Shown piece after piece: positions 15,335 to 55,080 of a DNA stretch of 64,000 nucleotides. The position numbers were made by a program, and so were the translations under genes. Below the pieces are notes generated by a model. That model searched no databases. It saw nothing but the letters and a program-made list of their open reading frames with translations, and was not told the origin of the DNA. The stretch is from assembly GCA_000091205.1 (NCBI GenBank), contig AP006486.2. One strand, given 5' to 3'. Source of the DNA: Cyanidioschyzon merolae (taxonomy: Eukaryota). The stretch's first letter is position 1. Every line of letters starts with the position of its first letter.

Positions 15335-17960
15335 ACAACGAATGCCTTTTACAAGAAAAAACGTTGCTGCCGCAAGTGGTATAGTAGTGGCGACAAACGC
15401 ACCGTAGACAAGGAGTCTTCAGCCGACGTGCAGACGCATCTCAGTCTTTCTCGACCGGCCACCCACTACTTCTTCCAACATTTTTTCATATAGTTCGAGT
15501 TTGAGAGGTTGTCCAACAAAATTCTATCTCGTCCACTCTGGAAGTCTATTCTCCAGCACCGCACGTCTCCTTATATTGATAGCGGCATTAATGTCTCGGT
15601 TCACAAACTCCATCCGTTTCTTGCCATCACTGGATGTACTTAATAATGCGAGTAGTCCACGAACTTTCGCTCTCCTTTCCATTTGCTCCTCCGTCAACGG
15701 TCCGTGCTTTGCTATTTCCTCAGGGCTCCGCTAATACTTTTCCATCTCGACCCTCTGAAGTGTACACCCCAGTTCATGGTGTGTATACGATGTTCGGAAG
15801 TCATCTACGGGTATCGTAACGAAACGCCGTGCGCACTCCTTGCACGTTTTTGTCGTTGGAGCTGGTGTAATGCCTTTTTTCGACGCCCAGCGCCCTGCTC
15901 CATACGCTACTACGAGCCTCTGACTTTCATTCTCCCTCAGGGCGCTCAACTGATTGAAAAAGTTCGAGAACGCCCGCTGCTTCCCACAATACAAATTCAT
16001 ACGCAAACGAGCCCACCGGGGCTTGGTGGATTCTTTCCACAGGGCATCCCAATGAGCAGCGCGAACTTCCATGAACTCCCGAAATGCTTCAAAGTCGGTT
16101 CCTCGGCTCGTCACCTCGCTCAAAGCTTCCAGGTGATCCCTCACTCCTGACTTCTAGGTCTCATTTTGTTTCCTCGCATTCATTATACCGGAATCCCGGT
16201 AGGATCTCGCTCTCGGGAACTTGAAAACTCGCATGTCTTTATGACGTAAATTGTCGTCGACACTATCTTCCGCACGCTTGGGTACAGCGACGGTTATGAT
16301 ATTTGTGTTTCCGGGGTCCGCGCCAACGACAAAGCCGTTATCGTGCACTTTCTGTGTTGCACGATCCACCTCCTTCTTTTCTCGATGCTTCGCCGCGTCA
16401 ACGACAAAGCCGTTATCGTGCACTTCGTGTGTCGCAGGATCCTCCTTCTTCGTACCTTCATCCTTCGCCACGGGCGGAGCTGGACGATCTGTCTTTAAGC
16501 GCCGATAGTGTACAGACATGGCTACTCCATCGTTTTCGATCATCCCAGTGAATACCTTTCGCTTGCTCACTTTCAGACGTTTGAAATCGACGAAATTCTT
16601 CTTCCAGTGCGTCTCCCGGCTTTCGCCGGAGAACTCCTCCCTGCTGACATTGAACTCCGGACTGATCTCCCTCATGATGCCGTAAAGGACGCCTGAATCG
16701 ATAGTCACGAAATGTGACCTGATGTTGCACATTGGAACCACGTTGAAGCGCTTCCCCATTAGGAAAGCCTTCCGCCTCTCCCACTCTTCATTTGTCTCCT
16801 CATTCAGCTTCATTTCCGCCTTGCGTTCCAGCTCTCCGTCCAGCAACACGAAATAGCGCAGGGCGAGGCGATAGTATCTTTCCTTATCTTTTTTCGACTC
16901 TGATAGCTTGTCTGTTGGACTCAGCAGCCCCAGTACCGCACGATGCTCTTCTACAACCGCACGGATGACAGAAGCTTCATTCGTGCTCTCGTTTGACGCC
17001 TTCTCTCCGACGAATTCGATCTCCTGTTCATGCTTGCGATCGTTCGTGACGCCATTGGTAATCGCCCATTTTCCTTTGCGAGCGATGCCAGGGTACAGCG
17101 CAAACACGGCGCGTATCATGAAGCGTTCGAGGTTCATAGTAAAATGGTTCTTCAGGTTCCTGATGTACTTCATCGCTCCGTATGTGTAAATGCACCAGTC
17201 AATTTTGTATCGAGTACCGTCGAAGCTCTAAAAGGGATGTTTTTCGTGGAGGGCATGCACTAGCACATTTTCCCTCGGCGCTTCCGCTGTACCAAGCATC
17301 AGGTGTCGAATAAAGGTCTTATCGAGAAACCCGTCCGGAATCCCGACCGTTTCCATCTGCGCCACGTCGCGATACATCTCCCTCGCCATATGCATCAGTC
17401 CTGAAGACGCCTTGACAATACTCTTGGAGTATGACGCAACACTGTTTTCGATAGCGTCTCGCAGCTTTTCCCTGTACGGATCCTTGATATTTTTAAGAAG
17501 ACAGACTTTCACCACCTTCTTGTCGCACAGTCGTCTTTCGTGCCGCCTTCGACGCAGAGCGTCCCACTTTCAGTCCTTCTTCTCTTCCTTTTCTTCTGGA
17601 CTTGGCACTGTTTTTCTGTTTTTTCTGGCAGCCCGCGACACTGGGCCTCCAGGATCATCGACTTGCTTTTCATAACTTCCTTTTTTTTGTTTTTTTTTGG
17701 AAAACAACGCTCCCTCCAACGCCTCTGATATAAACAGCGAGGAAAACTTGAATAAACCAAACTGAGGGTTGAAATATAACTGAACTGAAAAGTACACTCT
17801 GCTATGACTTTAACGCAAATGCAACTTGTACTTGAGAGCAACACGCTCAAGATCGCGATCCCGTTTCCCTTCAACGACGACATGCGCGTCGTATCTCATG
17901 CCTGCCAGATATGGAGGTGCGCGTATCGACCGCGATGCCCCCTGGCACTGTATGGGCCGA
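15335..17960 (-). mobile_element. Fanzor-like (eukaryotic TnpB/OMEGA-nuclease family) element, copy A, decayed
   Basis: The minus-strand ORF chain 17673->15524 is about 715 codons. It has a KKRKRRR NLS-like N-terminus, a [14 protein letters not shown] RuvC-I-like motif, a TKTCKECARRF...HH..C zinc-ribbon, and an NRDINAAINIRRRAVLEN RuvC-III motif. The 3' terminus lies near 15335 (aacgaatgcc...), and the same terminus is seen in copy B and at 53385. The 5' flank shares similarity with copy 3 out to about 17960. Confidence 0.7.
15524..17673 (-). pseudogene. Fanzor/TnpB-like nuclease gene, copy A, interrupted by in-frame stops
   Basis: An in-frame TAG at 16154-16156 sits where copy B has TGG (Trp). 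An in-frame TAG at 15731-15733 sits where copy 3 has CAG (Gln). An in-frame TGA in the N-terminal region sits where copy 3 has CGA. Otherwise the frame is colinear with copy B. Confidence 0.65.
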
Positions 17961-19154: not shown

Positions 19155-21705
19155 AAATTGCCGTCGTTGAAGGGAAACGGGATCGCGATCTTGAGCGTGT
19201 TGCTCTCAAGTACAAGTTGCATTTGCGTTAAAGTCATAGCAGAGTGTACTTTTCAGTTCAGTTATATTTCAACCCTCAGTTTGGTTTATTCAAGTTTTCC
19301 TCGCTGTTTATATCAGAGGCGTTGGAGGGAGCGTTGTTTTCCAAAAAAAACAAAAAAAAGGAAGTTATGAAAAGCAAGTCGATGATCCTGGAGGCCCAGT
19401 GTCGCGGGCTGCCAGAAAAAACAGAAAAACAGTGCCAAGTCCAGAAGAAAAGGAAGAGAAGAAGGACTGAAAGTGGGACGCTCTGCGTCGAAGGCGGCAC
19501 GAAAGACGACTGTGCGACAAGAAGGTCGTCAAAGTCTGTCTTCTTAAACATATCAAGGATCCGTACAGGGAAAAGCTGCGAGACGCTATCGAAAACAGTG
19601 TTGCGTCATACTCCAAGAGTATTGTCAAGGCGTCTTCAGGACTGATGCATATGGCGAGGGAGATGTATCGCGACGTGGCGCAGATGGAAACGGTCGGGAT
19701 TCCGGACGGGTTTCTCGATAAGACCTTTATTCGACACCTGATGCTTGGTACAGCGGAAGCGCCGAGGGAAAATGTGCTAGTGCATGCCCTCCACGAAAAA
19801 CATCCCTTTTAGAGCTTCGACGGTACTCGATACAAAATTGACTGGTGCATTTACACATACGGAGCGATGAAGTACATCAGGAACCTGAAGAACCATTTTA
19901 CTATGAACCTCGAACGCTTCATGATACGCGCCGTGTTTGCGCTGTACCCTGGCATCGCTCGCAAAGGAAAATGGGCGATTACCAATGGCGTCACGAACGA
20001 TCGCAAGCATGAACAGGAGATCGAATTCGTCGGAGAGAAGGCGTCAAACGAGAGCACGAATGAAGCTTCTGTCATCCGTGCGGTTGTAGAAGAGCACCGT
20101 GCGGCACTGGGGCTGCTGAGTCCAACAGACAAGATATCAGAGTCGAAAAAAGATAAGGAAAGATACTATCGCCTCGCCCTGCGCTATTTCGTGTTTCTGG
20201 ACGGAGAGCTGGAACGCAAGGCGGAAATGAAGCTGAATGAGGAGACAAATGAGGAGTGGGAGAGGCGGAAGGCTTTCCTAATGGGGAAGCGCTTCAACGT
20301 GGTTCCAATGTGCAACATCAGGTCACATTTCGTGACTATCGATTCAGGCGTCCTTTACGGCATCATGAGGGAGATCAGTCCCGAGTTCCATGTCAGCAGG
20401 GAGGAGTTCTCCGGCGAAAACCGGGAGACGTACTGGAAGAAGAATTTCGTCGATTTCAAACGTCTGAAAGTGAGCAAGCGAAAGGTATTCACTGGGATGA
20501 TCGAAAGCGATGGAGTAGCCATGTCTGTATAGTATCGGCGCTTGAAGACAGATCGTCCAGCTCCGCCCGTGGCGAAGGATGAAGGTACGAAGAAGGAGGA
20601 TCCTGCGACACACGAAGTGCACGATAACGGCTTTGTCGTTGACGCGGCGAAGCATCGAGAAAAGAAGGAGGTGGATCGTGCAACACAGAAAGTGCACGAT
20701 AACGGCTTTGTCGTTGGCGCGGACCCCGGAAACACAAATATCATAACCGTCGCTGTACCCAAGCGTGCGGAAGATAGTGTCGACGACAATTTACGTCATA
20801 AAGACAAGCGTCTGCTGATGTTGTCAAGAGCTAGATATTACCGGGAATCCGGTATAATGAATGCGAGGAAGAAAATCGTTTCATGGAATTCAGGAATGAA
20901 AGATCACCTGGAAGCTTCGAGCGAGGTTACGAGCCGAGGAGCCGACTTTGAAGCATTTCGGGAGTTCATGGAGGCTCGCGCTGCTCATTGGGATGCCCTG
21001 TGGAAAGAATCCACCAAGCCCCGGTGGGCTCGTTTGCGTATGAATTTCTGTTGTGGGAAGCAGCGGGCGTTTTCGAACTTTTTCAATCAGTTGAGCGCCC
21101 GGAGGGAGAATGAAAGTCAGAGGCTCGTAGTAGCATACGGAGCAGGGCGCTGGAAGACCCAAAAGGGACTATGCCAGCTCCAACGACAAAAACGTGCAAG
21201 GAGTGCGCACGGCGTTTCGTTACGATGCCCGTAGATGACTTCCGAACATCGTATACACACCATGGACTGGGGTGTACACTCCAGAGGGTCCAGATGGAAA
21301 AGTATTAGCGGAGCCCTGAGGAAATAGCAAAGCACGGACCTTTGACGGAAGAGCAAATGGAAAGGAGAGCGAAAGTTCGTGGACTACTCGCATTATTAAG
21401 TACATCCAGTGATGGCAAGAAACGGATGGAGTTTGTGAACCGAGACATTAATGCCGCTATCAATATAAGGAGACGTGCGGTGCTGGAGAATAGACTTCCA
21501 GAGTGGACGAGATAGAATTTTGTTGGACAACCTCTCAAACTCGAACTATATGAAAAAATGTTGGAAGAAGTAGTGGGTGGCCGGTCGAGAAAGACTGAGA
21601 TGCGTCTGCACGTCGGCTGAAGACTCCTTGTCTACGGTGCGTTTGTCGCCACTACTATACCACTTGCGGCAGCAACGTTTTTCTTTCGAAAGGCGTTCGC
21701 TAGCA
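19155..21705 (+). mobile_element. Fanzor-like element, copy B; inverted duplicate of copy A with its 5' end truncated at about 19155
   Basis: It is about 97% identical to copy A at the protein level over MKYIRNLKNHF...NRDINAAINIRRRAVLENRLPEWTR. Similarity to copy A stops at ...cccttcaacgacg near 19155, and the 3' terminus lies near 21705. Confidence 0.7.
19367..21515 (+). pseudogene. Fanzor/TnpB-like nuclease gene, copy B, with frameshifts and in-frame stops
   Basis: There is an in-frame TGA at 19468-19470 and a TAG at 20530-20532 where copy A has CAC. A 2 nt deletion near 21165 frameshifts the zinc-ribbon region. The TAG at 21306-21308 is shared with copy A. The RuvC-III motif NRDINAAINI lies at 21440-21470. 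Confidence 0.65.
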
Positions 21706-21740: not shown

Positions 21741-22400
21741 TTTTTTTTCTGATGAAAAAATGGTTAGATTCACTATGGATCCCAGAATTCGGAATGGATA
21801 ATGGCTTTCGGGAAAGCGTCCACGATGAAGCGCCTACCTTCAAGTTCTATCACGCATACTTCCTCTCGGATATACTGGTCGTTTCGTATATTCTATCGTG
21901 CGCCGAGCCTGCCGTGAACACCCGCCGTAGCGCTTATACCACTGAAGCAGATGCCACACGGAGACAGAACGGCTTTGCCATACCACTGAAGGCATCGACT
22001 CGAGGCGTGGTTCCTCCGACGTGGGGTCGGAGTACATAATATATCTGGGAGCCTGTAAGCTGCGCAGACAGACGCACTGCCTGTGGCAGCGCGGAGCGAT
22101 CTACAAGGAGTCCACTGTGACCACGGAGACGCCCAGACGCAGCATCCTGCTCCAAGTCCCCGAATGAAATGCGTTGCGGACGAGTTGTGCAGGTATCGCC
22201 ACAAAACCTGCCATTGGAGGAAGCATGAAGCACTAGCTAGCCCCGAAGACTCGTCCGGCTCGCGGGACCTTCCGCCTAGAAGGTAAAGTTTCGAAGATGC
22301 GGAAACTTTCCCCCTTTTCCATGAGTCATATCAAGGTCGAAAGAAACTGTTATCGAGTTGCTAGTCAGTTGTTAGTTTCTGTTCTTTCGTCTCTAGGAGA
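21741..22400 (-). repeat. Element R, copy i: roughly 650 bp non-coding repeat with a short A-tail (SINE/retroposon-like)
   Basis: It is about 80-85% identical to 27866-28515 and to the reverse complement of 48335-48993. On its own (minus) strand it ends ...ttttttcatcag followed by A9 (the T-run at 21741-21749 on plus). The 5' ends of all three copies coincide, which argues for a discrete unit. No conserved ORF is present. Confidence 0.65.
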
Positions 22401-26186: not shown

Positions 26187-27728
26187 CTACGGGATCTCCT
26201 CGGGGAGCACCGGGGACGCTGCCCCGAACACCCTTTGGATGTAGTCATTATCGAATCCTTGAAAAATTTGCTCACGTTCTGCAGTTGCCTTTGAACTGCC
26301 AATGCCAGCCTCTGGCACTGCATGTTCTGAATTGTCCGAAAGCGTGGTGTCTGTAGCGCATGTATGCCGACCAAGCGACAAGTGATGGCGACGAGCGCCG
26401 TGCTCACGTAGTGCCGCTTCAATGAGGGCTGGATTGGAACGCTCTTCTTTCTTGAATTTGTTCTTGATTTGTTTTCGGTTTCGATTGGGAAAGAGCTGCT
26501 CAATCATAGAATAGTTTTGACCGAAAGCTCGTAGCGCACGATAGAAAAGCGCAGTCTCCTCAGGCGGCCAGCGCTCACAAGAGGCGCGATTCGTGAAGGA
26601 CGCAATGGTCGCAGCACCGCGGCGAGGCGCTCCAGTATGCGTTTCAACAGAGATGTTCTCGTTCTCTGCTGGACGCTGCTCGCTCGTTATGGCAGTGCGC
26701 AGAAGTCTCTGCTGCTCAGCGCGTATCGCTCGACGGTGGCGCTGGACACGGCGCTGCAGATCGCACTCGACCGACGCTGGACCCGAAGCCGCTGACGCCA
26801 TCGAAGCGTTACCTCCCACCGCACCAGCATGATCTGAATGCTGTTCAGGGTGCACGCTTTCTTGTCCAGCATCAGCGTGCGCATCCGCCACATGCGAAGC
26901 GGTGACGACTAACGAGCGCTCATCCAGGACAAGGTTGCCGCGATTATCTAAGCGGACCTGTGGTGCAAGAACGACGGTATCTGCACCAGGGATCCGTCGG
27001 TCGAGCCTGTCGGATTGTGTGTCCTCCACGATAGCAGGCGATTCATAGAGTCGTTCAGGAACCAACACATCACGTGTGGCTGGTGCCCCTGATACACCGC
27101 CTTGCCTAGGCGATGGGCCCTCGGTCTCTGCGGGTATCTGCAACCCGATGTCTTTCGCAGACGCTTCCGCAACTGTTTCTTCAGAGCCAGGTGAGCAGTG
27201 TGCGGTACCCGTACGGTTGTCAGCCTGTCGTCGACGGCGGTCCACAGTTGGAGTGCGGTTGACGGGGCGCTGGCGGCTTCGTACGAGTTCTCGGATCCCT
27301 AGAGAGAGAGGATCAACGCTCATGGCTCCCGTATAACTTTTCTCAGCGTCTACTGCGCTTGCATCACTTGGTCGCGAGTGGCCCAGGCTGCTTCCGCCCG
27401 TCATTCGCGTGCGTTCAACATCCTGCACGAACCGAGACAACGGCGGAGAGACTAGCAGCCGTGTCATACCGCCCTGTTCAGAGACAGCTTCAGCGTCCAA
27501 ATAGTCGTCCGAGCCGACATCAACTTCGGGGACGCTGCGTTGACCCGGAACTACGTGACTTGCGACCTCCGAGTGAGGAGCTTCGTTGACTCCCACAGTG
27601 CCGCTGGACGGGTGCGTGTTCGGCGACCTTGGGGTCTGCCGCGGCACACGCCGTTGGCGCTTTCGCGAAGCACCCTCTGGCGGTAGTGAGGCTACCAACT
27701 CGATATTTTCAGTTGGTGAAGTCGACAT
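26187..27728 (-). CDS. TFIIIB B'' (Bdp1)-like protein with a SANT/Myb domain
   Basis: It starts at ATG. The C-terminal segment WPPEETALFYRALRAFGQNYSMIEQLFPNRNRKQIKNKFKKEERSNPALIEAAL matches the Bdp1 extended SANT domain (..LF..AL..FG.DFS.I..L.P.RTRRQIK.KFK.EE..NP..I..AL). The remainder is low-complexity. Confidence 0.6.
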   Translation of the reverse strand: MSTSPTENIELVASLPPEGASRKRQRRVPRQTPRSPNTHPSSGTVGVNEAPHSEVASHVVPGQRSVPEVDVGSDDYLDAEAVSEQGGMTRLLVSPPLSRFVQDVERTRMTGGSSLGHSRPSDASAVDAEKSYTGAMSVDPLSLGIRELVRSRQRPVNRTPTVDRRRRQADNRTGTAHCSPGSEETVAEASAKDIGLQIPAETEGPSPRQGGVSGAPATRDVLVPERLYESPAIVEDTQSDRLDRRIPGADTVVLAPQVRLDNRGNLVLDERSLVVTASHVADAHADAGQESVHPEQHSDHAGAVGGNASMASAASGPASVECDLQRRVQRHRRAIRAEQQRLLRTAITSEQRPAENENISVETHTGAPRRGAATIASFTNRASCERWPPEETALFYRALRAFGQNYSMIEQLFPNRNRKQIKNKFKKEERSNPALIEAALREHGARRHHLSLGRHTCATDTTLSDNSEHAVPEAGIGSSKATAEREQIFQGFDNDYIQRVFGAASPVLPEEIP

Positions 27729-27865: not shown

Positions 27866-28515
27866 CCTTTTTTTCGATGACGAAACGTTTATATGGACCG
27901 TGGATCCCAGATTGCTGAATCCATACAGGCTTTCGGGAATGTTTCCATTATGCAGGGCAATACTCCCAAGTTCCGTCACGTATACTTCCTTTCGGATATA
28001 CTGGTCGTGTTGTACATGCTATCGTTCACAGAGTACCCGCTGTGAGCGCTCGCCGTAGCGCCTTTACCGCTGGTGCGGATGAAGCGCGGAGACGGAACGG
28101 CGTTGGTATGCCCATAGACATGTAGGCTCGAGGCATGGTGCACCTGATACGGTGTCGGAGTACGTAGTAATTCTGGGAGCCTGCAAACTGCGTAGACAGA
28201 CCTACTGCCTGCGGTACCGGGAGGCGATAAACTAGGAGTCCACCGCGACCGGGGTGATATCCAGATGCAGCTTAACTGCCCCTAGTCCTGGAATAAACTG
28301 CACTGCGGACGAGTTGCTCAGATCTCACTGAGGCACGAGGCACAGTGGGGAGCAAGAAGCGCAAGCGCGGCAAACTCGTCCGGCTCACGGGACCTTCCGC
28401 CTGGAAGGTAAACTAGCGATAATACGGAAACCTTTTCCCCTTTTACCGTCTACGTTAGAGAGGGAAAGAAATCGCTATCTCGTTCCTAGTTCGTGGTTCG
28501 TCTCTGTTCTCTTTT
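27866..28515 (-). repeat. Element R, copy ii (solo copy, not next to a Fanzor gene)
   Basis: It aligns end to end with copies i and iii. The T7 run at 27866-27872 corresponds to an A-tail on the minus strand. Confidence 0.65.
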
Positions 28516-32269: not shown

Positions 32270-33100
32270 CCCGACCTGTACAGAGCAGTCTGCATCCGGG
32301 CCAGAAAAGGCATACGCATCCCAGCCTGCAGTGTCGTGCATTTCCGATAATCCGAATTACACATAGAGCAGTCTGCATCCCGACCAGAAAAGGCATACGC
32401 ATCCCAGCCTGCAGTGTCGTGCATTTCCGATAATCCGAATTACACATAGAGCAGTCTGCATCCGGGCCAGAAAAGGCATACGCATCCCAGCCTGCAGTGT
32501 CGTGCATTTCCGATAATCCGAATTACACATAGAGCAGTCTGCATCCCGACCAGAAAAGGCATACGCATCCCAGCCTGCAGTGTCGTGCATTTCCGATAAT
32601 CCGAATTACACATAGAGCAGTCTGCATCCGGGCCAGAAAAGGCATACGCATCCCAGCCTGCAGTGTCGTGCATTTCCGATAATCCGAATTACACATAGAG
32701 CAGTCTGCATCCCGACCAGAAAAGGCATACGCATCCCAGCCGGCAGTGTCGTGCATTTCCGATAATCCGAATTACACATAGAGCAGTCTGCATCCCGACC
32801 AGAAAAGGCATACGCATCCCAGCCTGCAGTGTCGTGCATTTCCGATAATCCGAATTACACATAGAGCAGTCTGCATCCCGACCAGAAAAGGCATACGCAT
32901 CCCAGCCTGCAGTGTCGTGCATTTCCGATAATCCGAATTACACATAGAGCAGTCTGCATCCGGGCCAGAAAAAGCATACGCATCCCAGCCTGCAGTGTCG
33001 TGCTTTTCCGATAATCCGAATTACACATAGAGCAGTCTGCATCCGGGCCAGAAAAAGCATACACATCCCAGCCTGCAGTGTCGTGCATTTGCAATGGAGT
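32270..33100. repeat. Minisatellite, 83 bp unit x about 10, two alternating unit variants
   Basis: The unit is cacatagagcagtctgcatccSgRccagaaaaggcatacgcatcccagcctgcagtgtcgtgcatttccgataatccgaattaca. Its periodicity shows in the identical 77 aa minus-strand ORFs spaced exactly 83 nt apart from 32357 to 33021. It lies in the intergenic region upstream of Rab7. Confidence 0.9.
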
Positions 33101-42243: not shown

Positions 42244-45200
42244 CATCAACGCCGCCGCATCTGAGTGGGTAAGGTCAGCAAGCTGCGTCCGCCTTTTGGC
42301 TGTTGGATCGCACCCAGTGGCATCATGGAGCTGTTCGGGACGATATTTTGCTCTGATGCCAAGGGAGCACTCCTGGACACCGTGTGCGACTAGACAGTGG
42401 TGTCTGTACCGTCCGAGCGCGGAGCTTGTTTGCACCGACGTCTTAGACGGTGGTGTGCGAAAACGGTGATGTGGTGGTGGACGGCTTCTTGCGTCGTATA
42501 GCGGTACCGCCACTGACCCATTTACAAATATTCCAGCGGAAACGCAGGCCGATACAAAGTCAAGTATCGGAGCTCGGCTCGCTGCGTACGCATTACATTG
42601 TGCAAGCCTGGAGCGTCATGGTGGCTGTTCTCGCGCTTGCTCTGCGTTACGTCCGTGGACATTCCCAATCGGGGCACTGGAGCTGCAAATGCAACTTTGC
42701 AAGAATCCTTTTCGGTTTTGGGAGGCGATGGCGGGCGCTAACACGAGCATCTGGGGCCGAAAAAGTGCTTTTTAAGCATTTATCTACCAGCATCAGGGAC
42801 ACAAAGTGCACGCGACCTTATGAGCACACACCCCCGGATGGCGATAGAGAGAGAGCATTGAACGCCAGTCGGCACGGTACTCTGCGACCTGTACGCTGTG
42901 GGCGTTACGAACGATCCCCGGTTCCTGGGCGATTCGACGCCCCGTGACTGGTGGTATGGGCGTCCAAGGCTGGCCTTGGCGGATCCGTTAGCCTCCGCCC
43001 TGTGCCTGGAACCTGCTGCCGTCGTAGTGCTGTTGCGCGATGCGTCTTGGGGCACGAGTACTCCAGAGGCGAGCGGTCTCCGTTCTGTCACGTGTGCGGC
43101 CAGCTGTGCATCGTTCGTTACGTGGAGAAGCTGCATTCAGAAGTGCAAGGAATCTTCTGAGGCGTGCAGCTCGATTCATAAGATTTAGGTGTCCACGGGG
43201 GATATGCATAGTGGAACTGTGAGCCACGGGCTGTCAGCTCCAAGCGTACGGCGTTGAGCACGGGCCCACAAGCGACGCGGCCATCTGTTTGATCTGATAT
43301 GCACTCCTGAGTCGTCTGATCTTTTGAAGTCCAAGCAAAGTCGACGCATCTACAGGGAATCTGACGCACGGACCTGAAATGCGGTCAATTTTGATGCAAC
43401 CGAAGATTCTGGCTGGATGCGTTGGTGCTACAGCGTTAGAAATACCGATGTGGTGCCTTGGTTCGCGATTCTAGGTTGCTTGCCTCGCAAGCAGGCATCG
43501 AGAGCACAGCGGTAGCCTTGTTCACGGTATGTAACTGCTCTAGAATGCGAAGCGAGCGCAACTGCTGGCTGTTCACCGTAAGCAAACCAAATGATGTTCC
43601 GTGGATCCATAGCAGAGCGTCTGCCCGAGCAGGCAGCGTGACATCATTGCGATCTGGATGTAACATGCTGGAGAACGATCCCTGAAGTCCCAAGGAGCGC
43701 TGGCCTCGACCTGGCTGCTGCCCAGATTGCTGGAATGCCGCGGTCTGCATGCCGCTTCTGCTTCTATATCAAACTTAAAAACGATCAGGTCATCCTGGCT
43801 TGCTCGAGTGTATACGCTAACGAGTGGACCTCATCCCATTGTCATCAACAACAGCTTTTGAGATGTTTTTCAGCGACTTGTTCCTTTCCCTCTCTGTTTT
43901 CTTCGGATTTGAATACGTCGGACTCTCTTGTCAATCCAGCTTCAATTTTAGCGGGCGAAGTATGTTCACACTAGCATTACCAGCTTGATTTCACTGTTCC
44001 TGGCTGTTGTCTAATCGTTTCATGCGCAGACGCAGATTGCGATGATCGCTTCGCTTGGCGCTTGCACCTTCTCTGGGCGTATTCTCGATGCGCCCCTCAC
44101 AGCAGTGACACTTAACTGTCGTAAGATATTCCCCAATGTCCAGCACACGTCCTCCACCGAGGGCCATTCAGTGGCTCGCAAATGTATTTCTCTTCGCTTG
44201 GTACATGCCCTTGGCGAGCACAGAGGGCTCGCCTGGATGCGATCCTTCGGTTTCGATTCAAGAGCTGCACCCTGCGATCACTCGTTTCTGCAGTGCGGTA
44301 CCGTCGGCGACTAGGTTGCCCGCTGCACCTGCAAACGCACAAGGGCCCATTCGATGCAAGCACTGTGGAATGTGATGTTGTCCGTGAAGGAACGACGCTC
44401 AGAATGAAAATCCATGGTGGAATAGGTATTGAGAAGAGTCGATCGGTTTATGCGCCCGAAATGCAAAAAGTTAGTGCACACTTTAGAAGAAATTATTGTT
44501 GCAGCTGTGCAAGTCCGAGTACAAGGCACTTCTACATACAAGCAAAAGAGACCGGATCTTCTGCATGCATAGATTTCGAGGGGTATCATGCTGCCGTGGA
44601 ATGCCGTTCAGTGGATGCCCACAAAGAAAGAAAGATTTGTGCCTCGAGCTTGAACGGTTATAACAACGTTGCATGTGCAGAGAACATGCGACGTGAGCGT
44701 TCCATGTTGTCGATAGCCGACGTCGAGATTAATTCCCGTCAATTCAGGGCCCTGTATTGCTGCACCCACGAGATGCCTTGATACGCATAGATCGAAAAGC
44801 GTGCAGAGTGTCTGATTTTAGATTGCTGTATGAAACGAAGGGGGAAGCGTGGAGGCTCTTTCGTTTCCGCTAAAAAATGATATGGATGATATCCTTCATG
44901 AGACCTCGATCAAGGGCGTTGCGAATCATCTTGATCCCGGTGCAGAAACGAATTTCAGCGGCAAAGCGTCGACCTAGTCACTCCGAAAAACGACCAAGAA
45001 TCCTAAAAATATGCGTACATTAGTTATCGTTTCTTACTGCATTCAAATGTCGAGAGTGTTCACTTATAAAGTGTTCGGAAAAATCGAATGCAAGGATAAA
45101 AGCGAGCGGTTTACTGTCCCATGAAAAAATATGACGGAAATGTCGCCAGCCTTGCAGTTCTCCACGCTAGAGAGGGCCCGTGCCTTACTTGGCAACCAAG

Positions 45201-46024
45201 TCGAGCGCGAAGCACGCTTGGCTACCTCCATTCCTGTCCTCGAGAAACGCAACCAGAGTTGCACTGCGGCGTTCGGAAGAATCCGAATGACGGCCGCCTC
45301 CAGATTCGTCACCCGCCACAATGGCATCGCTGGGGGCGCTGCATCGCCTCCTTGAGCGTCACCCGGCGGCTTGCACGCTCGGACCTGGAAGAAATCGCTT
45401 CAAGCGTTACGGTCTGCTGGTTGGTGCTCGGCTGTTCTGTGGTCCAGAGAATACCGCAAATCCCAGGTCGTTGAAGGCAATTACTGGCCCGGTCACGTGT
45501 CAGTGGGAACCGGTTCGATGTCTGCGCGCTTTGCTGCAGGCGATCTTTACACCAGGCGACGCCGAAAACATCGTCCTCGGTAAGCACTATCAAGCAGACT
45601 CTCGCTGCCTCATGAAACTCGCTGTCCAAGAGGCATGCAACAATCAGAAGCGTATAATTGTGTGTCCCCAAGCAGAAGCAGGCAGACTGACAATTACCAG
45701 CCACCTCGTTTCGCGCTTTGCTGGGGATGTGCTCGCAACAAAGCACTGCTACCCCAGCGCCGCCGGGCTCCGGAAGCTCCACAGAGTTGTCTCCAATCGA
45801 CATGGTGAATGTTCACCACTGTGCAACGGAGGACACGATAAGCGCAGCCTTGCGCCAATTCATCGTTGGTGTCTTGATGGAAGATGGCGTGTGAAATGCT
45901 GGTGGCATATCGAGAATGAGATCCAGGCCGCATTGCCCAGCGGTATCCGCACGCACTGCCTAGAGAAAAGGCTGCACAAAGAATCGCGTTCACGCGCCTT
46001 ATTCTTGGCCGGATGGAGAGCATG

Positions 46025-46867
46025 TTAGAAGCAGATCATCACAGCAATGGACTCGAGAAAGAGCAACGTTGCCACAGACAAGCACGCCATTCCCTGTACA
46101 GCAAGATACGGATTCAAACTAGGACGGATAAATGCGTACTGGCATCCTGGTACGTTTCTACCAACTGGTCCACACAGAGGCGGAGCGGTCCCATCGCTAG
46201 CTCGATAGAACCCGCTGCACTGATAAATGTGCTGGAACAGACACCGGAGTTCCGGTCTCGTATCCCGCCAAGCAGCAAGCTCAGCTGACTCATCGCCTGC
46301 AGCATACACGATGCATAGCGCCGCCAGTAGCGCTAGCAGAACTGCGCAGAGCAGCGAGACTGTTCGGTAGAGAATACGCCAAGCATACTGTCTCGGAACA
46401 AGCGCACTTACGATCGCAAGCAGCAGCGTCAAGCTCCCGAGAACCACGTACACAACTCCTTGTCCCAGGAACGCCCGGTATAGTCCGTTCCAGGCCAGTC
46501 GATTGACGAGTGCGTCCCCACTCTGCACCTGATTGTAGATGCCGAGACCAAGCACGGCTCCGGATGCAAGCGCCAAGTACGCGAGGAAGGCCGCCCGGTG
46601 CGCCGAAAAGCGTCGTCGACTGTTGTGCTTTCTCGGAGTCGTTACCGCAACACTTGCTCTTTGTTGTGGTTGTTCTCCCTCCTGGGAAGCAGCGTTACTT
46701 TGTAAACCAAGGAGACCTTCCAAGTCGGCAAACCCGTGCGGGTCTCCATCAAGAGGCGGTGCAGAGGCAGCCTCGAGCTTCATGGGAGACCTGCGCAAAG
46801 TCCCCGAATCGACTCGATTGAAGATAAAATTGGCGCTGAACGTTTCTTTTCTGTTCCAGCGATGCAT
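46025..46867 (-). CDS. Four-TM tetraspanin-like membrane protein with a Cys-rich large loop (no CCG motif)
   Basis: The first ATG is at 46865-46867 (the track start is TTG). It has four hydrophobic segments in a 1-3 / 4 arrangement, with cysteines in the second loop (CLFQHIYQCSGFY...CGPVGRNVPGC). The canonical CCG is absent, so the family is uncertain. Confidence 0.35.
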   Translation of the reverse strand: MHRWNRKETFSANFIFNRVDSGTLRRSPMKLEAASAPPLDGDPHGFADLEGLLGLQSNAASQEGEQPQQRASVAVTTPRKHNSRRRFSAHRAAFLAYLALASGAVLGLGIYNQVQSGDALVNRLAWNGLYRAFLGQGVVYVVLGSLTLLLAIVSALVPRQYAWRILYRTVSLLCAVLLALLAALCIVYAAGDESAELAAWRDTRPELRCLFQHIYQCSGFYRASDGTAPPLCGPVGRNVPGCQYAFIRPSLNPYLAVQGMACLSVATLLFLESIAVMICF

Positions 46868-48334
46868 CCACAGCGTGTGCAGTCGGTGCCTGAACGCGAC
46901 GAGGAGCAGTACGAGCTCCGTAAAAGTGTGAAGCAAGGCTTAGTTCAGCTTGAACGCCATCATGGTGGGTTTTCCCAGGGCGCAAGGGCCCACGAGCGCA
47001 AGGAACGGGAGGTACACAAGGGAGGACACGGACGCGGTGGCGCCCCTGGCAGCCTCGACGAGGAGATTTCTCGTGTTCTGAAAAAGAGTGGAGGAAAAGC
47101 TGAGGAGGCGCTGCGAATTGCACAGGAAGACGAAGAACCGTACGCGGAAGGAGAAGCTGAGGACGATGCTGAGGATGCGCACGCCGCAGAAGCCACAGGC
47201 ACGGAGCCACTTGAGAACGGGTCCCTGGACGCTTCCGCACCGAGCAGTGCAACACCGGGGGAGAGCGTGCCGTAGAGACTATCGGACGTGTAGTTGGTCG
47301 GTGTCGCTGCGCCGGGAGTGTTCGTCGCGTTAGGAATGTTGGGGGAGTCTTGAGCTGCAACAGCAAAACGAGTCACTCGGGAGGTCTCAGTTCTGGTCGC
47401 GGGTCGACTGCGAGTGCTATTGAGAGCTCTGCACGTAAGTGTCAAACATGTTCCGGAAACGGGCCAGTGGGACGACTTTTGCAACTCCTGGGCTTTGCGG
47501 TGTCTAGTATAGCGTTGTTTTCGGAACGGTCTCGAGACAGAAAGGGTTCGGCAATTCTAGTAGCAACAACCTGAATTGGACATACTGGACACGAGGCTGG
47601 CGCTCGCGGTTAACTGTTCGGAACATACGAATAGAAGAACAGTAAACAATCTTTTACGAGTTGAGTGCGTTTCCCGGGCTATTGATGTAGCTCTCGAAAT
47701 GATTGAAACGTCAGAGCACAGCATATATACTTGAGCGAGAGCCGCGCCCGCCGAGGATCCTCCGTGGATTCGAGGCCCTCCCATGAGATGCTTCAAGCGC
47801 TGAGACGTTGGCGAGACGCGGCGGCCGTGTGTAGAAATGATTCACTAGGGAGCTTTCCAGGTCATTTTCATCATCGACAAAGAGGTTCGGAACGTTTTAT
47901 GCTCAGAGTTTTTCCCGATTATCATGTCAGGGTCATGAATGGTTGTTCGCGGAAACTGTCTCGCCAGCAGGCGCGAAGATGACCTGAGAGACGAGCGTTG
48001 CAGCACGCCGAAGACTACTGGAGCCAATCTTCGACCGGTTCTCATCACGTCGATGACTGTGCATGAACACATCTGGAATTCTGTAGCAGCGCAGTGCTTT
48101 CATGCGTTTCTGACGACGGAACCAAGAGGGCAACATCAGTAAAGGATCTGTCGAAACTACAGGCCCGCGTCACGCTCGATGCTCTGCATATTTCGATATG
48201 TGGCATGGAGTCCATGCATCCCAATGCAAGTCCATTGATTGGTCGACTCCGTATCTGATGCTTTTGTGGGAATATGCAAGTGGCATCCGTGCAAAACCTC
48301 CGGAACTGGAGCGGGTTGAGTGTGAAATTGCACC

Positions 48335-48993
48335 TAGGGTGCTGACAAGCGACAAGCGCGGCATCGACGACTGCGAGAAAGAACTGAAACGAACCACTGA
48401 CTAGCAGCTCGATAACAGTTTCTTTCGACCTTGATAGCAATCGATGAAATCGGGAAAAGTTTCCGAATCTTCGAAAGTTTATCTTCCAGACGGAAGGTCC
48501 AGCGGTCCGGACGAGTCTGCGGGGCTAGTGCTTCATGCTTCCTCCAGTGCAAGGTGCTATGGCGAGACCTGCGTAGCTCGTCTGCAACACAAGCAATCGG
48601 GAAGTAGGGAAAGGAAGCCGCGCCTGGGCGTCGCCCTTGTCGCAGTGGACTCCTGGTAGATCGGTTCGCCCTGGCGCGGGCTCCCAGAACGATGATGTAC
48701 TCCGACCCCGTGTCGGATGAGCCCTGCCTCGAGACGACGCCCTCAGTGGTCTTGCAAAGCCGCTACGTCTCAGTGCAGCATCTGCTTCAGCAGTATATCA
48801 GCGCTACGGAAGGTGCTCGCGGCAGGTACTCGGCGCAGGATAGAACATACGAAACGACCAGTATATCCGAGACCAAGTATGCGTTATGGAACTTGGAGGT
48901 AGATGCCTTATGGCGGACGATTCCCCGGGAGCCATTATCGATTTCGAGTTCTGGGATCCATGGTCAATTGTCCACGGATTGTCATCGAAAAAA
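48335..48993 (+). repeat. Element R, copy iii, plus orientation, with an A6 tail at 48987-48992 pointing toward Fanzor copy 3
   Basis: It aligns over its full length with the reverse complement of 21741-22400 and 27866-28515. It ends ...gtcatcgAAAAAAg. Confidence 0.65.
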
Positions 48994-49136
48994 GAAATCG
49001 ACCGCTGTGATCGAAGCGCTCGGGCCGAGGCGAGGCGCGATCTCGAATGCGGCGCGATCCAAGCGCTATGAGTATATATATAAATTTAGACGGTTGCATC
49101 GCCACCGGCATGGCGCGGTGTGCGCCAAGCAGAGAT

Positions 49137-49248
49137 CCAGTGATAGCTCACTCGCTTCCCATGCGAGGCTACGAGTTGGTAGAGCATTCGGCTGTAGTGG
49201 TACTTTGCATCTACCGAAGGGTCCCTGGTTCGAGTCCGGGTCACTGGA
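49137..49248 (+). tRNA. Probable tRNA-Tyr(GTA) with a 15 nt canonical anticodon-loop intron and an extra 24 nt insertion (intron-like) in the D-arm
   Basis: The 7 bp acceptor stem is perfect: CCAGTGA/TCACTGG. The D-stem is GCTC/GAGC around the D-loop AGTTGGTA, with 24 nt (49150-49173, containing the hairpin CTCGC..GCGAG) inserted after the 5' D-stem strand. The anticodon stem is TTCGG/CCGAA, and the loop CTGTAG|tggtactttgcatct|A matches the eukaryotic tRNA-Tyr loop CUGUAGA split at 37/38. The variable loop is GGGTC and the T-arm is CCTGG-TTCGAGT-CCGGG. The discriminator is A, followed by a T7 run. Confidence 0.55.
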
Positions 49249-49251
49249 AGA

Positions 49252-49258
49252 TTTTTTT
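49252..49258 (+). terminator. Pol III-type oligo-T terminator (T7) immediately 3' of the tRNA
   Basis: The sequence is ttttttt, starting 4 nt after the discriminator base. Confidence 0.4.
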
Positions 49259-49959
49259 CGAAACTTGAGAATCTCGGGATCTGCTCGAAACCACTGCCTA
49301 GGTAAGTCATTTTCTGAATCGGGACTCTGCAGCAACTAGCCGATCCCCGAAAAATTTACAATTCTTGTTCGCAGCCTGCGCAAGGATACTTGCGTCCCGG
49401 CAGACGCTTGTCCCTTCCGCAAGCTCCAACGAGAGTGCCTGGAGGAATCATGTTACAGTCCGTCAAACATTCTAGGATCACCGGGTGCCGGGCATTTGGA
49501 TAGTGCAAGGCCGCTGGATGCGTCTTTGCGAATTCTGTACACTCACAGAATGGCTTCGCGTTTTGTTGATTCGTATCATATCCAGGCGCACAGTACGACA
49601 CATGTGAGGAACGTGGACACAAGGCCGGAACCTGTGGAAAGAACGAATTTCCCGCGACTCCTGGGAGAATCTGCGCGGCATAAGAACAGCTTTGATTTCG
49701 CCGCACCACCAACCAGATGAGGACACACGGAGCAGTTGGCCGGCAGGTTTGTCCCGATCGCCGGATCTTCTTACAATGTAAACTTGGAGACTCGACAAAA
49801 AACCTTGCCCCCATTATGCGCTGCAATATATTAGAACAGGAGCCGTTCGCTAATTGCTCAACCGCGGTCTGTATTCGTTTATCCTGAATAACGATTCATT
49901 GGTTCCGGCACACACCTCGAAAGGAGGCACCGCCGCCTCCAAACACCTCTCGAAAGTTC

Positions 49960-52700
49960 AACGACGTCACCGTTGTACAGTAGTGGCGAGTGACCCGCCC
50001 TAGACAAGAAGTCTCCGACTGCTATGCAGACGCCTCCGCGTCTTTCTCGACCGGCCAACTACTACTGCATCCAACTTTTTCTCATATACTTCGACTTTGA
50101 GAGGCTGTCCAACTATGTTCTCTCTTGTCGACTCTGGAGGTGTTTCCTCCAGCACTGCACATCGCCTTGTATTGATAGCGGCGATAAAGTACCGGCCCAC
50201 AAACTCCATCCGTTTCGTGCCCCCGTTGGTTGTACTTACTAGCGTGAGTAGTCCACGAACTTTCGCTCTCCTTTCCACTTCCTCCTCCGTCAGCGGTCCG
50301 TACTTTGCTATTTCCTCAGGGCTCCTCTGGCAATTTTCCATTTCGACCCTCTGAAGTGTGCACCCTAGCTCGTGTTGTGTGTAGGAGGTTCGGAACAGAT
50401 CTATCGGTTTTGCAACGAAAAGCCTTGCGCACTCCTTGAACACCCTCGTCGTTGGAGCTGGCTTAGTGCCTTTCTTGGGCGCCCAGCGCCCTGCTCTGTA
50501 TGCTGCTACTAGCCTCTGATTTTCACCCTCGTTCAAGGCGCTCAACTGATTGAAAAAATTCGCGAACGCTCGCTACTTACCACAATACAGATTCATTCGC
50601 AAACGAGTCCATCGGGGCTTTATATACTCCTCCCACACCGCATCCCAATGCACAATGCGAACTTCCATGAATATTCCGAAAAGATTCAAAGTCCGCTCCA
50701 CGGCTCGTCACCTTGCTCATAGCTTCCAGGTGCTTCTTCAGTCCAGCATTCATATCTCGATTTTCTTCCACTCATTCAATATACCGGATTCTCGATAGTA
50801 TGTCGCTCTCGAGAACCTCAAAAGGCGCATATCGTTCTGACGAAAGTAACCGTCAGTAACATCTTCCGCGCGCTTGGGTACAGCGATGGTTACGATATTT
50901 GTGTTTCCGGTGTCCCCGCCAACGAAAAAGTCGATATCTTGCACTTTCTGCGTCACAGGATCCACCTCCTTCTTCTCTTCATGCTTCGCCGCGCCAACCA
51001 TAACGTGGTTATCCTGCACTTTCTGTGTGGCAGGATCCGCCTACCTCTCATCTTCATCCTTCACCGCGCCAACGACAAGGTCGTTATCCTGCACGTTCTG
51101 TGTCGCAGGTTCCGCCCCCTTCTCATCTTGATCCTTCACCGCGTCAACAACAAGTTCGTTATTCTCCACCTCCTGCGTTGCAGGATCAGACTCCCCCTTT
51201 TCTTCATCCTTCGTGACGGGCGCAGCCGAGGGAGGGACTGGCCGATCTTTCTTCAACCACCGATAGTGTACAGACATGGCTACTCCATCGGTTTCGATCA
51301 TCCCTGTGAATACCTTTTATTTGCTGACTTTCACACGTTTGAAATCGAAGATATTCTTCCACAAAGGCTCCCGGATTTCACCGGTGAGGTCCTCCCTGTT
51401 AACATTGAACTCCGGACTGATCTCCCTCATGATGCCGTAAAGGACGCCTGAATCGATAGTCACAAAATGTGACTTGATGTTGCTCATTAGAACCACGTTG
51501 AAGCGCTTCCCCATTAGGACAGCCTTCCGTCTCTCCCATTCTTCATTTCTTCCTCAAACAGCTTCATCTCCGCCTTCCGCTCGAGCTCCCGGTCCAGAAA
51601 CACAAAATACCGCATTATGAGATAATAGTATCTTTCCTTATCTTTTTTCGACTCTGATATCATATCTCTTGGATTCGCCAACCACAGTACCGCACGTTGC
51701 TCTTGTCTAGCCGCACGGATCGCAGAAGCTTCGTTCGCGCTCTCGTTTACGCCTTCTCTCTGACAAATTCGACCTCATCTTCACGCTTGCGATCTTTCGT
51801 GATGGCCTTGATAGTCGCCCGTTTTCCATTGCGAGATAGGCCCGGGTAGAGTGCAACCACGGCACGTAACATAAAACGTTCGAGGTTCACTGTCAAATGG
51901 TCCTTCAGATTCGTGGGGTACTTCATGGGCCCATATGAGTGAACATCCCGGTAACCCCAGTATCGAGTACCACTGAAGCTGTAAAAGGGATGTTTTTCGT
52001 GGAGGGCATGCACCCGCTCATTTTCCTTCCGAGCTTCCTCTGTGCCAAGCATCAGCTGACTAACAAAGGTCTTGTCGAAAAAATCTTTCGGAATCTCTAC
52101 CGTTTCCATGTGGGTCACGTCGCGATCCATCTCCCTCGGCAAATGCATCAGTCCTGACAACGCGTTGACAATACTCTTGGAGTAAGAGGCCACATGTTTT
52201 TCGATAGCGTCTCGCAACTTACCCTGTAGGGATCCTTGATATGTCCAAGAAGGAAGGTTTTCACCACCTTCTCGTTGTAAAGTCGACTTTCTTGCCGCCT
52301 TCGATGTAGGGCCTCCTGCTTTCGGTTCTTCAGCTCTTCCTTTTCTTCAGGACTCGGCACTGCTTTTTGTTCTTTTCTGGCAGCCGGCGACCTTGGACCT
52401 CCAGGATCGTGGGCTTGCTTTTTCATAAATTTCCTTTTCTTGTTTTTTAAAGATAACGCTCTTTGAACGCTTCTGTTAGATACTGCGCAAAACACTTGAC
52501 TAGACTTGTTTGAAGCTTGAAACGAAAATGAACAGAAACACTGTACTTTGCTAGGACCTGAACGGAAATTTAACTTTTTTCCAGCTGAACAACACGCTAG
52601 AGATCATAATCACGTTTCCCTTCAACAGCGGCACGCGCGTCGTGTCTCATGTCTGTCTGATCTCCGAGGTGCACTCACCGAGCGCGATGCCTGCACCGCG
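49960..52700 (-). mobile_element. Fanzor-like element, copy 3 (diverged family member, decayed)
   Basis: The minus-strand ORF chain 52426->50000 is colinear with copies A and B at about 60-70% identity. It contains [71 protein letters not shown]...HELGCTLQRVEME and KRMEFVGRYFIAAINTRR. Its 3' terminal sequence (49960-50030) is related to the copy A/B termini, and its 5' flank (about 52600-52700) resembles the copy A 5' flank. Confidence 0.65.
50000..52426 (-). pseudogene. Fanzor/TnpB-like nuclease gene, copy 3, with frame breaks, a lost RuvC-III Asp and an internal tandem repeat expansion
   Basis: The conserved NRDINAAINI is replaced by GRYFIAAINT, so the catalytic Asp is lost. Several frame breaks lie between 50545 and 52150. 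Segment 50930-51240 holds about 4 tandem ~75 nt units encoding (D/E)PATQ.V.DN.LVV.A.K, against 2 units in copies A and B. Confidence 0.6.
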
Positions 52701-54024: not shown

Positions 54025-55080
54025 ATGCAGCGTTCGCCTGTAGCGCGCCGGCATCGTATGCTGCATCTTCGTATGGGCCCGAAACAGTCGCAGATCGCCG
54101 TGGTCACTGGCGCGTCCTCTGGGGTCGGTCTGTATGCAGCTCACGCTCTGATCAACAAGGGCAACTGGCACATCGTCATGGCATGTCGTGACGTCGACCG
54201 GGCGGAGCGCGCAGCAAACAGCGTAAACCTTCCAAAGGACGCCTATACAGTGCTGCATTGTGATCTGGCTGATTTCGCCTCTGTACTAAAGTTTGTGAAA
54301 GGGCTATCGAGTGTGGCGCGCGTCGATCACCTGGATGCCCTGATCTGCAATGCCGCAATCTGGCATCCGCGGGTCAAGAAACCGCGTTTCACGGTGGACG
54401 GCATCGAGAAAACCATGCAGGTATGCCATCTGAGCCATTTGCTTCTATGTCGGGAGCTGTTGCCGAAGCTGAAAATATCGCGCGGGCGCATTGTGTTTCT
54501 GACGACTCAGACACACTCGCCGGATTCGCTGCCGGGAAAGATCCCCCCGCAGGCTCGTCTCGGGGATTTATCTGGTCTAGCCGCGGGGCTTGATCCGCAG
54601 ACGACGGACATGGTAGAAAGTGGCCCGTTTCAGCCCACAAAAGCTTTCAAAGACGCCAAAGCCGAGAACGTGTTGACAATGAAGGCGCTCAGTGATCGAT
54701 ACGGCCGCGACGGGGTGACCTCTGTGGCGATTTTCCCGGGATGTGTCGCCGAAAGCAACCTCTTCCGCGAAAAGCGTGGCTGGTTCCGGTACGTATTCTT
54801 CCCGATTCTTCAGAAGTATATCACTCGGCAATACGTTCCGAATGATGAGGCCGGCCGCCGTGTAGCCGAAGTGGCGACCCAGGGACAGTTCTCGGACGCG
54901 GGCTCGTATTGTCAGTGGCGTGGCAAATATACGGAAGGTCGAGAGAAGACGAAATCGCAGGTTATTGAACCAACGTACGAAATCGACAAGGCAGATCAGC
55001 TATACGAACTGAGTCTTGATCTGATCGACCAGGCGTTACGGAGGCGAGGCCTCAAGTCGACTATCTTGGCCCCTGTCTAA
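54025..55080 (+). CDS. POR: Light-dependent NADPH:protochlorophyllide oxidoreductase (SDR family)
   Basis: The ATG is at 54025 (the track start at 54019 is TTG). VVTGASSGVGLYAAHAL...WHIVMACRD..RAERAA.S...P..YTVLHCDLA....V.KFV, IPPQARLGDLSGLAAGL and FPGCVAESNLFREKRGWFRYVFFPILQKYITRQYVPNDEAGRRVAEV closely match plant and algal LPOR (IITGASSGLGL...WHVIMACRDFLKAERAAKS...[80 protein letters not shown]). It stops at TAA. The N-terminal presequence looks short. Confidence 0.85.
   Translation: MQRSPVARRHRMLHLRMGPKQSQIAVVTGASSGVGLYAAHALINKGNWHIVMACRDVDRAERAANSVNLPKDAYTVLHCDLADFASVLKFVKGLSSVARVDHLDALICNAAIWHPRVKKPRFTVDGIEKTMQVCHLSHLLLCRELLPKLKISRGRIVFLTTQTHSPDSLPGKIPPQARLGDLSGLAAGLDPQTTDMVESGPFQPTKAFKDAKAENVLTMKALSDRYGRDGVTSVAIFPGCVAESNLFREKRGWFRYVFFPILQKYITRQYVPNDEAGRRVAEVATQGQFSDAGSYCQWRGKYTEGREKTKSQVIEPTYEIDKADQLYELSLDLIDQALRRRGLKSTILAPV

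Follow-up and report, generated by a model that had tools for sequence, protein, structure and literature searches.

A probable tRNA-Tyr(GUA) gene of Cyanidioschyzon merolae 10D with a D-arm intron and a canonical anticodon-loop intron

We analyzed a 64,000-nt stretch of contig AP006486.2 (hereafter the window) and found that 49137-49248 (+) is very probably a functional nuclear gene for tRNA-Tyr(GUA) in Cyanidioschyzon merolae 10D, whose three exons, delimited by sequence reading and by ARAGORN on edited sequence, are separated by two introns of the endonuclease type; judging from sequence and predicted folds, its transcript would give a mature tRNA-Tyr. The translations of four ORFs of the window are exact matches to the C. 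merolae 10D proteins BAM79229, BAM79230, BAM79233, and BAM79234, all encoded on a 513,455-bp chromosome, and the GC content (about 53-55%) agrees with this host. Genes of this kind, with ectopic and multiple bulge-helix-bulge (BHB) introns, are already known for C. merolae, since a genome-wide catalogue has been published for strain 10D (Soma et al. 2013, Sci Rep 3:2321, PMC3728597).

Gene structure and tRNA identity

As the first-pass annotation of this DNA had claimed, the gene is missed by default scanners. ARAGORN at default settings called 0 tRNA genes in the unedited window, and Rfam at gathering thresholds gave 0 matches to it. A permissive search of 49050-49330 with the Rfam tRNA model (RF00005) reached 15.8 bits (E = 1.1) against a cutoff of 29, with an alignment that starts at the D-loop and loses the acceptor stem; a shortfall is to be expected of a model that cannot span the D-arm insert, and we did not count it against the spliced product being a tRNA. 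When 49150-49173 was deleted, ARAGORN at default thresholds called tRNA-Tyr(gta) with a 15-nt anticodon-loop intron, and when both blocks were deleted, it cleanly recognized the remaining 73 nt as a tRNA-Tyr with no intron, lengthening the acceptor stem by one pair and reporting 75 bases.

Table 1. Parts of the tRNA-Tyr(GUA) gene, its flanking signals, and the predicted splice element of intron 1
Feature	Coordinates	Strand	Content	Basis
TATA-like box	49073..49088	+	TATATATATAAATTTA; likely upstream Pol III promoter element	Read directly; invariant in three related strains
Exon 1	49137..49149	+	tRNA positions 1-13: acceptor 5' strand CCAGTGA, T8 A9, D-stem 5' strand GCTC	Sequence reading
Intron 1, 24 nt	49150..49173	+	ACTCGCTTCCCATGCGAGGCTACG, read as A-CTCGC-TTCCCAT-GCGAG-GCTA-CG; site 13/14, D-stem/D-loop boundary	ARAGORN call after its deletion
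Exon 2	49174..49197	+	Positions 14-37: D-loop AGTTGGTA, D-stem 3' strand GAGC, A26, TTCGG (anticodon stem, 5' strand), loop CTGTAG	Sequence reading
Anticodon GTA	49194-49196		In exon 2	
Intron 2, 15 nt	49198..49212	+	TGGTACTTTGCATCT; canonical 37/38 site	ARAGORN on edited sequence
Exon 3	49213..49248	+	Positions 38-73: A38, CCGAA (anticodon stem, 3' strand), GGGTC (variable loop), CCTGG-TTCGAGT-CCGGG (T arm), TCACTGG (acceptor, 3' strand), discriminator A73	Sequence reading
T7 run	49252..49258	+	Starts 4 nt past the discriminator base; likely Pol III terminator	Sequence reading
Relaxed BHB (HBh') element	49144..49174	+	Spans both cut sites of intron 1	Local MFE and precursor MFE
Central helix H, 4 bp	49144-47 : 49168-71		UAGC (exon U8-C11) : GCUA (intron 1)	MFE
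5' bulge, 3 nt	49148-50		UC|A	MFE
Intron helix h', 5 bp	49151-55 : 49163-67		CUCGC:GCGAG, the self-complementary CTCGC...GCGAG of intron 1	MFE
3' cut site of intron 1	49172-74		Within CG|A	

The spliced sequence forms a class-I cloverleaf with 7/4/5/5-bp stems and a 5-nt variable loop (ARAGORN default), and carries the universally conserved bases U8, A14, G15-C48, G18G19, A21, U33, G53-T54-T55-C56-G57-A58, and C61. All of the stems claimed by the first-pass annotation are present, although its description of their pairing as perfect is not strictly right because the T stem contains one G.U (T51.G63), which with 20 Watson-Crick pairs makes 21 paired positions. The eukaryotic and archaeal identity set read by tyrosyl-tRNA synthetase (TyrRS) consists of the C1-G72 pair and the A73 discriminator, together with the anticodon GUA. 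The whole set is found here (C49137-G49247, A49248, and the GUA anticodon), and the Tyr-GUA anticodon loop CUGUAG|A is split at the canonical site by the 15-nt intron, as had been proposed. ARAGORN sets the boundary of this intron one base further 3', which gives the loop CTGTAGT; placement at 37/38 gives the usual CTGTAGA. A base-by-base reading returned exactly the limits that had been assigned to the 24-nt block, and also confirmed the 15-nt block and the run of seven T. The exons are colinear (1-13, 14-37, 38-73), so the gene is not circularly permuted with its 3' half upstream of its 5' half, and exon 3 stops at A73, with the CCA end not encoded.

The TATA-like sequence ends 49 nt before tRNA position 1, and no run of four or more T occurs inside 49137-49248. 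The gene thus has the arrangement of the BHB-disrupted C. merolae tRNA genes of Soma et al., with a TATA-like sequence upstream, a T-stretch downstream, and no such signals between the exons.

Could the resemblance to a tRNA be a product of the choice of deleted bases? The deletion was picked to make the fold work, and ARAGORN with lowered thresholds does yield a tRNA-Phe(gaa) with a 12-nt intron at 26815-26905 (-), which we rejected as a false positive lying inside the coding region of a TFIIIB B'' homolog (BAM79234) and having a poor or non-canonical T-loop and D-loop. Set against this, ARAGORN calls the tRNA-Tyr at default thresholds once the block is deleted, the spliced sequence has all universally conserved bases and the 21 stem pairs, a BHB-type structure arises independently from the deleted block, and, according to the text of the catalogue, no eukaryote other than C. 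merolae is known to abound in such genes (PMC3728597). A rough estimate that allows all deletion positions and lengths across the window puts a chance origin of the cloverleaf at <1e-6. A resemblance by chance is therefore exceedingly improbable and in practice negligible for this tRNA, being effectively refuted by the post-deletion ARAGORN calls together with the precursor and local folds.

Predicted folds and splice geometry of the two introns

The D-arm insert and its flanks are predicted to form a relaxed BHB element (Table 1). In the 31-nt local segment, this structure is the minimum free energy (MFE) fold at -10.0 kcal/mol, compared with a mean of -5.1 +/- 2.0 kcal/mol for dinucleotide shuffles of the segment, 1.7% of which are as low as -10.0; in the ensemble, H pairs with a probability of 0.48-0.80 and h' with one of 0.81-0.96. 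The MFE fold of the full 112-nt precursor (-41.5 kcal/mol) contains the acceptor stem, the T arm, the UAGC:GCUA helix, the UCA bulge, and the intron hairpin. Cleavage of a BHB by the endonuclease falls two nucleotides 3' of both strands of the 4-bp helix (A-I pair, 37/38 geometry). This geometry reportedly goes back to work by Marck and Grosjean in 2003 and by Baldi et al. in 1992. Applied to H, the rule puts the cuts within UC|A and CG|A, at 49149|49150 and 49173|49174, and these are exactly the cuts that rebuild the D-arm GCUC-AGUUGGUA-GAGC, so that the D-arm exon boundaries agree with the cleavage rule on both sides. Since an A is present at both junctions of intron 1, cuts one base further 3' would yield an identical product, and it is the BHB rule that picks between these equivalent choices.

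The element belongs to an intron outside 37/38 and comprises a 4-bp central helix, a 3-nt bulge (a strict or relaxed motif needs at least one), and a flanking helix longer than the 2 bp that the motif has to exceed. A BHB-like structure at the boundaries of the D-arm insertion, whose absence the first-pass annotation had named beforehand as refuting its reading, is accordingly present in the precursor MFE in relaxed HBh' form. The strict hBHBh' form was not found: the fold lacks a second closed 3-nt bulge at the 3' splice site as well as an outer helix h (>2 bp) between the exons. A7/G15 and U5/U17 are unable to pair, and the sole outer pairing (CCAGU with A.UUGG, in a fold of the 5' half) comes at the expense of the acceptor stem and still contains a 2x2 loop. 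The fold of the full precursor has the 3' site of intron 1 in an open multibranch junction beside the acceptor stem, and because this site does not sit in a closed 3-nt bulge, the motif is classed as relaxed rather than strict (HBh' in the nomenclature of Soma et al.). Together, the folds support the view that intron 1 is an endonuclease-type intron with a relaxed BHB motif.

The 37/38 intron is weakly structured. In the best hBH-like fold, U33-G37 pair with nucleotides 8-12 of the intron, leaving the 3' site within a 1x4 internal loop; the whole anticodon arm then reaches -5.2 kcal/mol versus -2.3 for the anticodon stem alone, and this fold is one of many that are nearly equal in energy. The motif at 37/38 thus contributes about -3 kcal/mol beyond the anticodon stem, compared with -10.0 for the D-intron motif. 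The anticodon stem was not recovered in the predicted precursor fold (pair probability <0.01), nor after removal of the D intron, because 49176-49186 (UUGGUAGAGCA, D-loop and D-stem 3' strand) has 8+3-bp complementarity to 49206-49217 (UGC.A.UCUACCGA, the 3' end of intron 2 and the anticodon-stem 3' strand). We treated its absence as a limitation of nearest-neighbour prediction for tRNA and not as counter-evidence. The complementarity is at about chance level and is absent from an environmental tRNA-Tyr gene with a similar D-arm insert (L020, described below). A folding interlock as an explanation of the intron order, in which this pairing would mask the anticodon-arm motif until the D intron leaves, was rejected on these two grounds and because the pairing persists after removal of that intron.

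These predictions suggest how the gene may be expressed. RNA polymerase III would start from the upstream TATA-like box, the A box being split by intron 1 in an organism with no recognisable TFIIIC, and would stop at the T7 run. In the precursor, U8-C11 would pair with GCUA near the 3' end of intron 1 and, with the 5-bp intron hairpin, make up the relaxed BHB; with U8-C11 held by the intron, the D-stem could not form. The tRNA-splicing endonuclease (cmSen2/cmSen34, with or without cmSen54) would make its cuts behind C13 and ahead of A14, in both cases two nucleotides 3' of a strand of the 4-bp helix, and a ligase would join the ends, whereupon the D-arm would form. According to the text of Soma et al., the strong non-anticodon introns (about -11 kcal/mol) of C. 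merolae tRNA-Phe and tRNA-Ile are removed before their weak 37/38 intron (PMC3728597). By analogy, we infer that in tRNA-Tyr the strongly structured D-arm intron would leave first and the weak 37/38 intron last. End trimming and CCA addition would then give a 73+3-nt tRNA.

Genomic setting and conservation among related strains

Self-BLAST of the window revealed a dispersed element of about 2.5 kb in three copies, two of which (15339-17882 and 19159-21699) form an inverted pair with 97% identity, while the third (49972-52691), about 80% identical to 15376-17939 and to the inverted copy over 19159-21663, starts about 720 nt downstream of the tRNA-Tyr gene. The element holds a 339-aa ORF (16154-17173, -) with no Pfam match, and is probably what the first-pass annotation called element R. 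A second family, of about 600 bp, also has three copies (21742-22388, 27868-28444, and 48377-48968; 72-78% identity), and the last of these, about 78% identical to an inverted copy over 21768-22388, ends about 170 nt upstream of the gene. The locus had been placed between a dead Fanzor copy and an element-R copy: the downstream repeat agrees with the latter, but the Fanzor copy was not confirmed, with no Pfam matches, TnpB/Fanzor-type domains included, in the six frames of 44400-48999 or for ten flanking ORFs. Elsewhere in the window, 32282-33090 is a tandem array with an 83-bp period and about ten copies that are 96-98% identical (self-BLAST offsets).

The presence of repeats at 48377-48968 and 49972-52691 on the two sides raises the question of whether the sequence is a tRNA-derived repeat, such as a SINE-like element or a fragment carried by its neighbours, rather than a dedicated gene. 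We consider this highly improbable, given that both repeats stop well short of the gene, that the tRNA segment occurs only once in the window, and that the cloverleaf is complete and comes with its own TATA box and terminator.

We further scanned metagenomes for inserts of 10-40 nt at exactly the 13/14 site of tRNA-Tyr. The pattern returned 33 loci, of which most were set aside as normal tRNA-Tyr genes that happen to be preceded by TAGCTC. Three loci (L005, L019, and L027) come from strains closely related to C. merolae (96.5-98.8% identity, or 1.2-3.5% difference, over kilobases), and none of the three differs from the window in the tRNA-Tyr gene, its two introns, the TATA box, or the terminator. 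In the four-way alignment, 30 of 1,722 columns are variable, none of them in 49135-49342 (208 nt), while eight fall within the 41 nt of 49094-49134, between the TATA-like box and tRNA position 1, which is presumed to be the 5' leader of the transcript. This invariance is consistent with constraint, but is statistically weak and no proof of it, because only about 2 changes were expected in the 112-nt gene, where 0 were seen. As the gene is 100% identical in the three orthologous loci, no covariation for the BHB helices was obtainable from them.

To reach more distant Cyanidiales, a synteny probe with the neighbouring protochlorophyllide reductase gene (54025-55077) was used; it retrieved two homologs (69% and 85% identity; L034 and L035), and no tRNA-Tyr was found in their 10-kb flanks, so synteny is not kept. 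L035 comes from the same hot-spring metagenome (Ga0078972) as L005, a metagenome that holds two Cyanidioschyzon-like populations: L005 has 96.5% DNA identity to the window, whereas the protochlorophyllide reductase of L035 has only 85% protein identity, and the upstream 10 kb of L035 has a different gene order and no tRNA-Tyr.

These data bear on whether the locus is a tRNA-Tyr pseudogene, its D-arm inactivated by the 24-nt insertion and a working tRNA-Tyr encoded elsewhere. Rejection of 49137-49248 by the standard scanners and its position between dispersed repeats are what such a pseudogene would lead one to expect. Nevertheless, the geometry of the insert exactly suits the splicing endonuclease, as that of a random insertion would not; the promoter-like element and the terminator are intact; the stems and conserved bases have no substitutions; and the gene is identical in three diverged strains. 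Moreover, no other tRNA-Tyr-like sequence occurs in the window, and the published set, as its text describes it, is single-copy for all anticodons except Gly(CCC) (PMC3728597). A pseudogene is therefore very unlikely, and a functional gene remains the preferred reading.

Environmental inserts and comparison with known systems

The metagenome scan also returned a different tRNA-Tyr(GTA) with a 19-nt insert (ATCCCAGGAGGGAGCTAGT) at 13/14, on two freshwater contigs (L020, Ga0164297_10005283, 4166-4214, -; L032, Ga0164296_1003237, 9404-9452, -; coordinates on reverse-complemented loci). Its insert has the UAGC:GCUA helix and UCA bulge as in C. merolae, with a different inner hairpin (UCCC/GGGA), and the gene includes a 37/38 intron of 14 nt and ends in a T5 terminator; an alternative 6-bp UAGCUC:GAGCUA fold (-8.7 kcal/mol) competes with the BHB fold (-8.3). 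HemW, an aspartyl protease, CYP38, sortilin, and a nuclear-encoded plastid L1 are encoded on the contig, which is compact nuclear DNA of a eukaryote, and its best named matches are to Picochlorum, Chlorella, and Micractinium (66-69% identity), which suggests a green-lineage alga as host. Green algae are reported to lack ectopic tRNA introns almost entirely. The 13/14 position is common to this gene and that of C. merolae because the search pattern found only inserts there, so the fold in common and the host lineage are the only independent observations in the comparison. We consider it rather unlikely that the design of the D-arm intron, in which U8-C11 pairs with GCUA two nucleotides before the intron 3' end, extends beyond C. 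merolae. Two further environmental tRNA-Tyr genes (L029, 11187-11242, +; L023, 832-887, +) carry 26-nt D-arm inserts. In both, the central helix would be GCUC:GAGC, so that the BHB rule puts the intron at 15/16; L029 is AT-rich with a long 37/38 intron, and the T-loop of L023 apparently contains a further insert, of 10 nt.

What the present gene adds is limited. BHB ectopic introns, TFIIIC-independent transcription, and ordered intron removal were published for C. merolae in 2013 (PMC3728597). The exact exon, intron, and BHB coordinates can now be used for annotating the tRNA-Tyr gene, and the case indicates that a disrupted tRNA gene missed by ARAGORN and Rfam can be recovered by direct, tool-less reading of sequence. 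The forward-looking value lies solely in the D-arm intron of the uncultured, presumably green-lineage alga, which bears on how widespread such introns are: if the two introns were homologous, or if insertion at 13/14 had happened repeatedly, ectopic tRNA introns would have an earlier origin or a wider spread in Archaeplastida than a picture confined to red algae allows.

Soma et al. applied SPLITS/SPLITSX to the C. merolae genome and, according to the text of their paper, found 43 nuclear tRNA genes, 27 of them with introns and nine with two; of the 42 introns, which measure 11-69 bp, 17 interrupt the 37/38 site and 19 the D-arm, namely the D-stem in 5 cases and the D-loop in 14 (PMC3728597). 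Most genes have TATA-like sequences upstream and T-stretches downstream, and the genome has no TFIIIC homologs. The ectopic introns and permuted tRNAs that the first-pass annotation had described as a peculiarity of C. merolae match this catalogue. The running text, figures and supplement aside, does not name tRNA-Tyr, and our literature search found neither a report specific to this C. merolae tRNA-Tyr nor another gene-level list. However, the catalogued set covers sufficient anticodons, only Gly(CCC) is duplicated, and Tyr is not among the 11 permuted genes, from which it follows that the single tRNA-Tyr of the catalogue, going by its completeness as stated in the text, is almost certainly the locus at 49137-49248. 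C. merolae non-canonical introns are also annotated in PlantRNA 2.0 (Cognat et al., bioRxiv 10.1101/2021.12.21.473619).

Compared with the catalogued C. merolae genes, as far as the text of the catalogue describes them, the tRNA-Tyr gene fits all of the listed properties: both intron lengths lie within 11-69 bp, and a TATA-like box, a T-stretch, and a disrupted A box are present. It has the two-intron layout of tRNA-Phe(GAA) (D-stem and 37/38), with a BHB motif at the junction, and resembles tRNA-Ile(UAU), which is interrupted at 12/13, 37/38, and 53/54, where tRNA-Tyr is interrupted at 13/14 and 37/38. There is no difference in kind, the D-arm motif being relaxed (HBh') here versus strict (hBHBh') in the D-stem introns of tRNA-Phe and tRNA-Ile. 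[quoted passage not shown] The two genes share the combination of a D-region intron with a canonical anticodon-loop intron, but the D intron of C. crispus lies at 20/21, as in all of its D-intron genes, rather than at 13/14. [quoted passage not shown] In yeast and plants, the tRNA-Tyr intron is required for pseudouridine 35 (cited in PMC9602550). With the tRNA-Tyr(GUA) of yeast, plants, and animals, the gene has in common C1-G72, A73, G34-U35-A36, and a canonical intron beside the anticodon, whereas in ordinary eukaryotic tRNA-Tyr genes the internal A box is intact and the D-arm is not interrupted by an intron.
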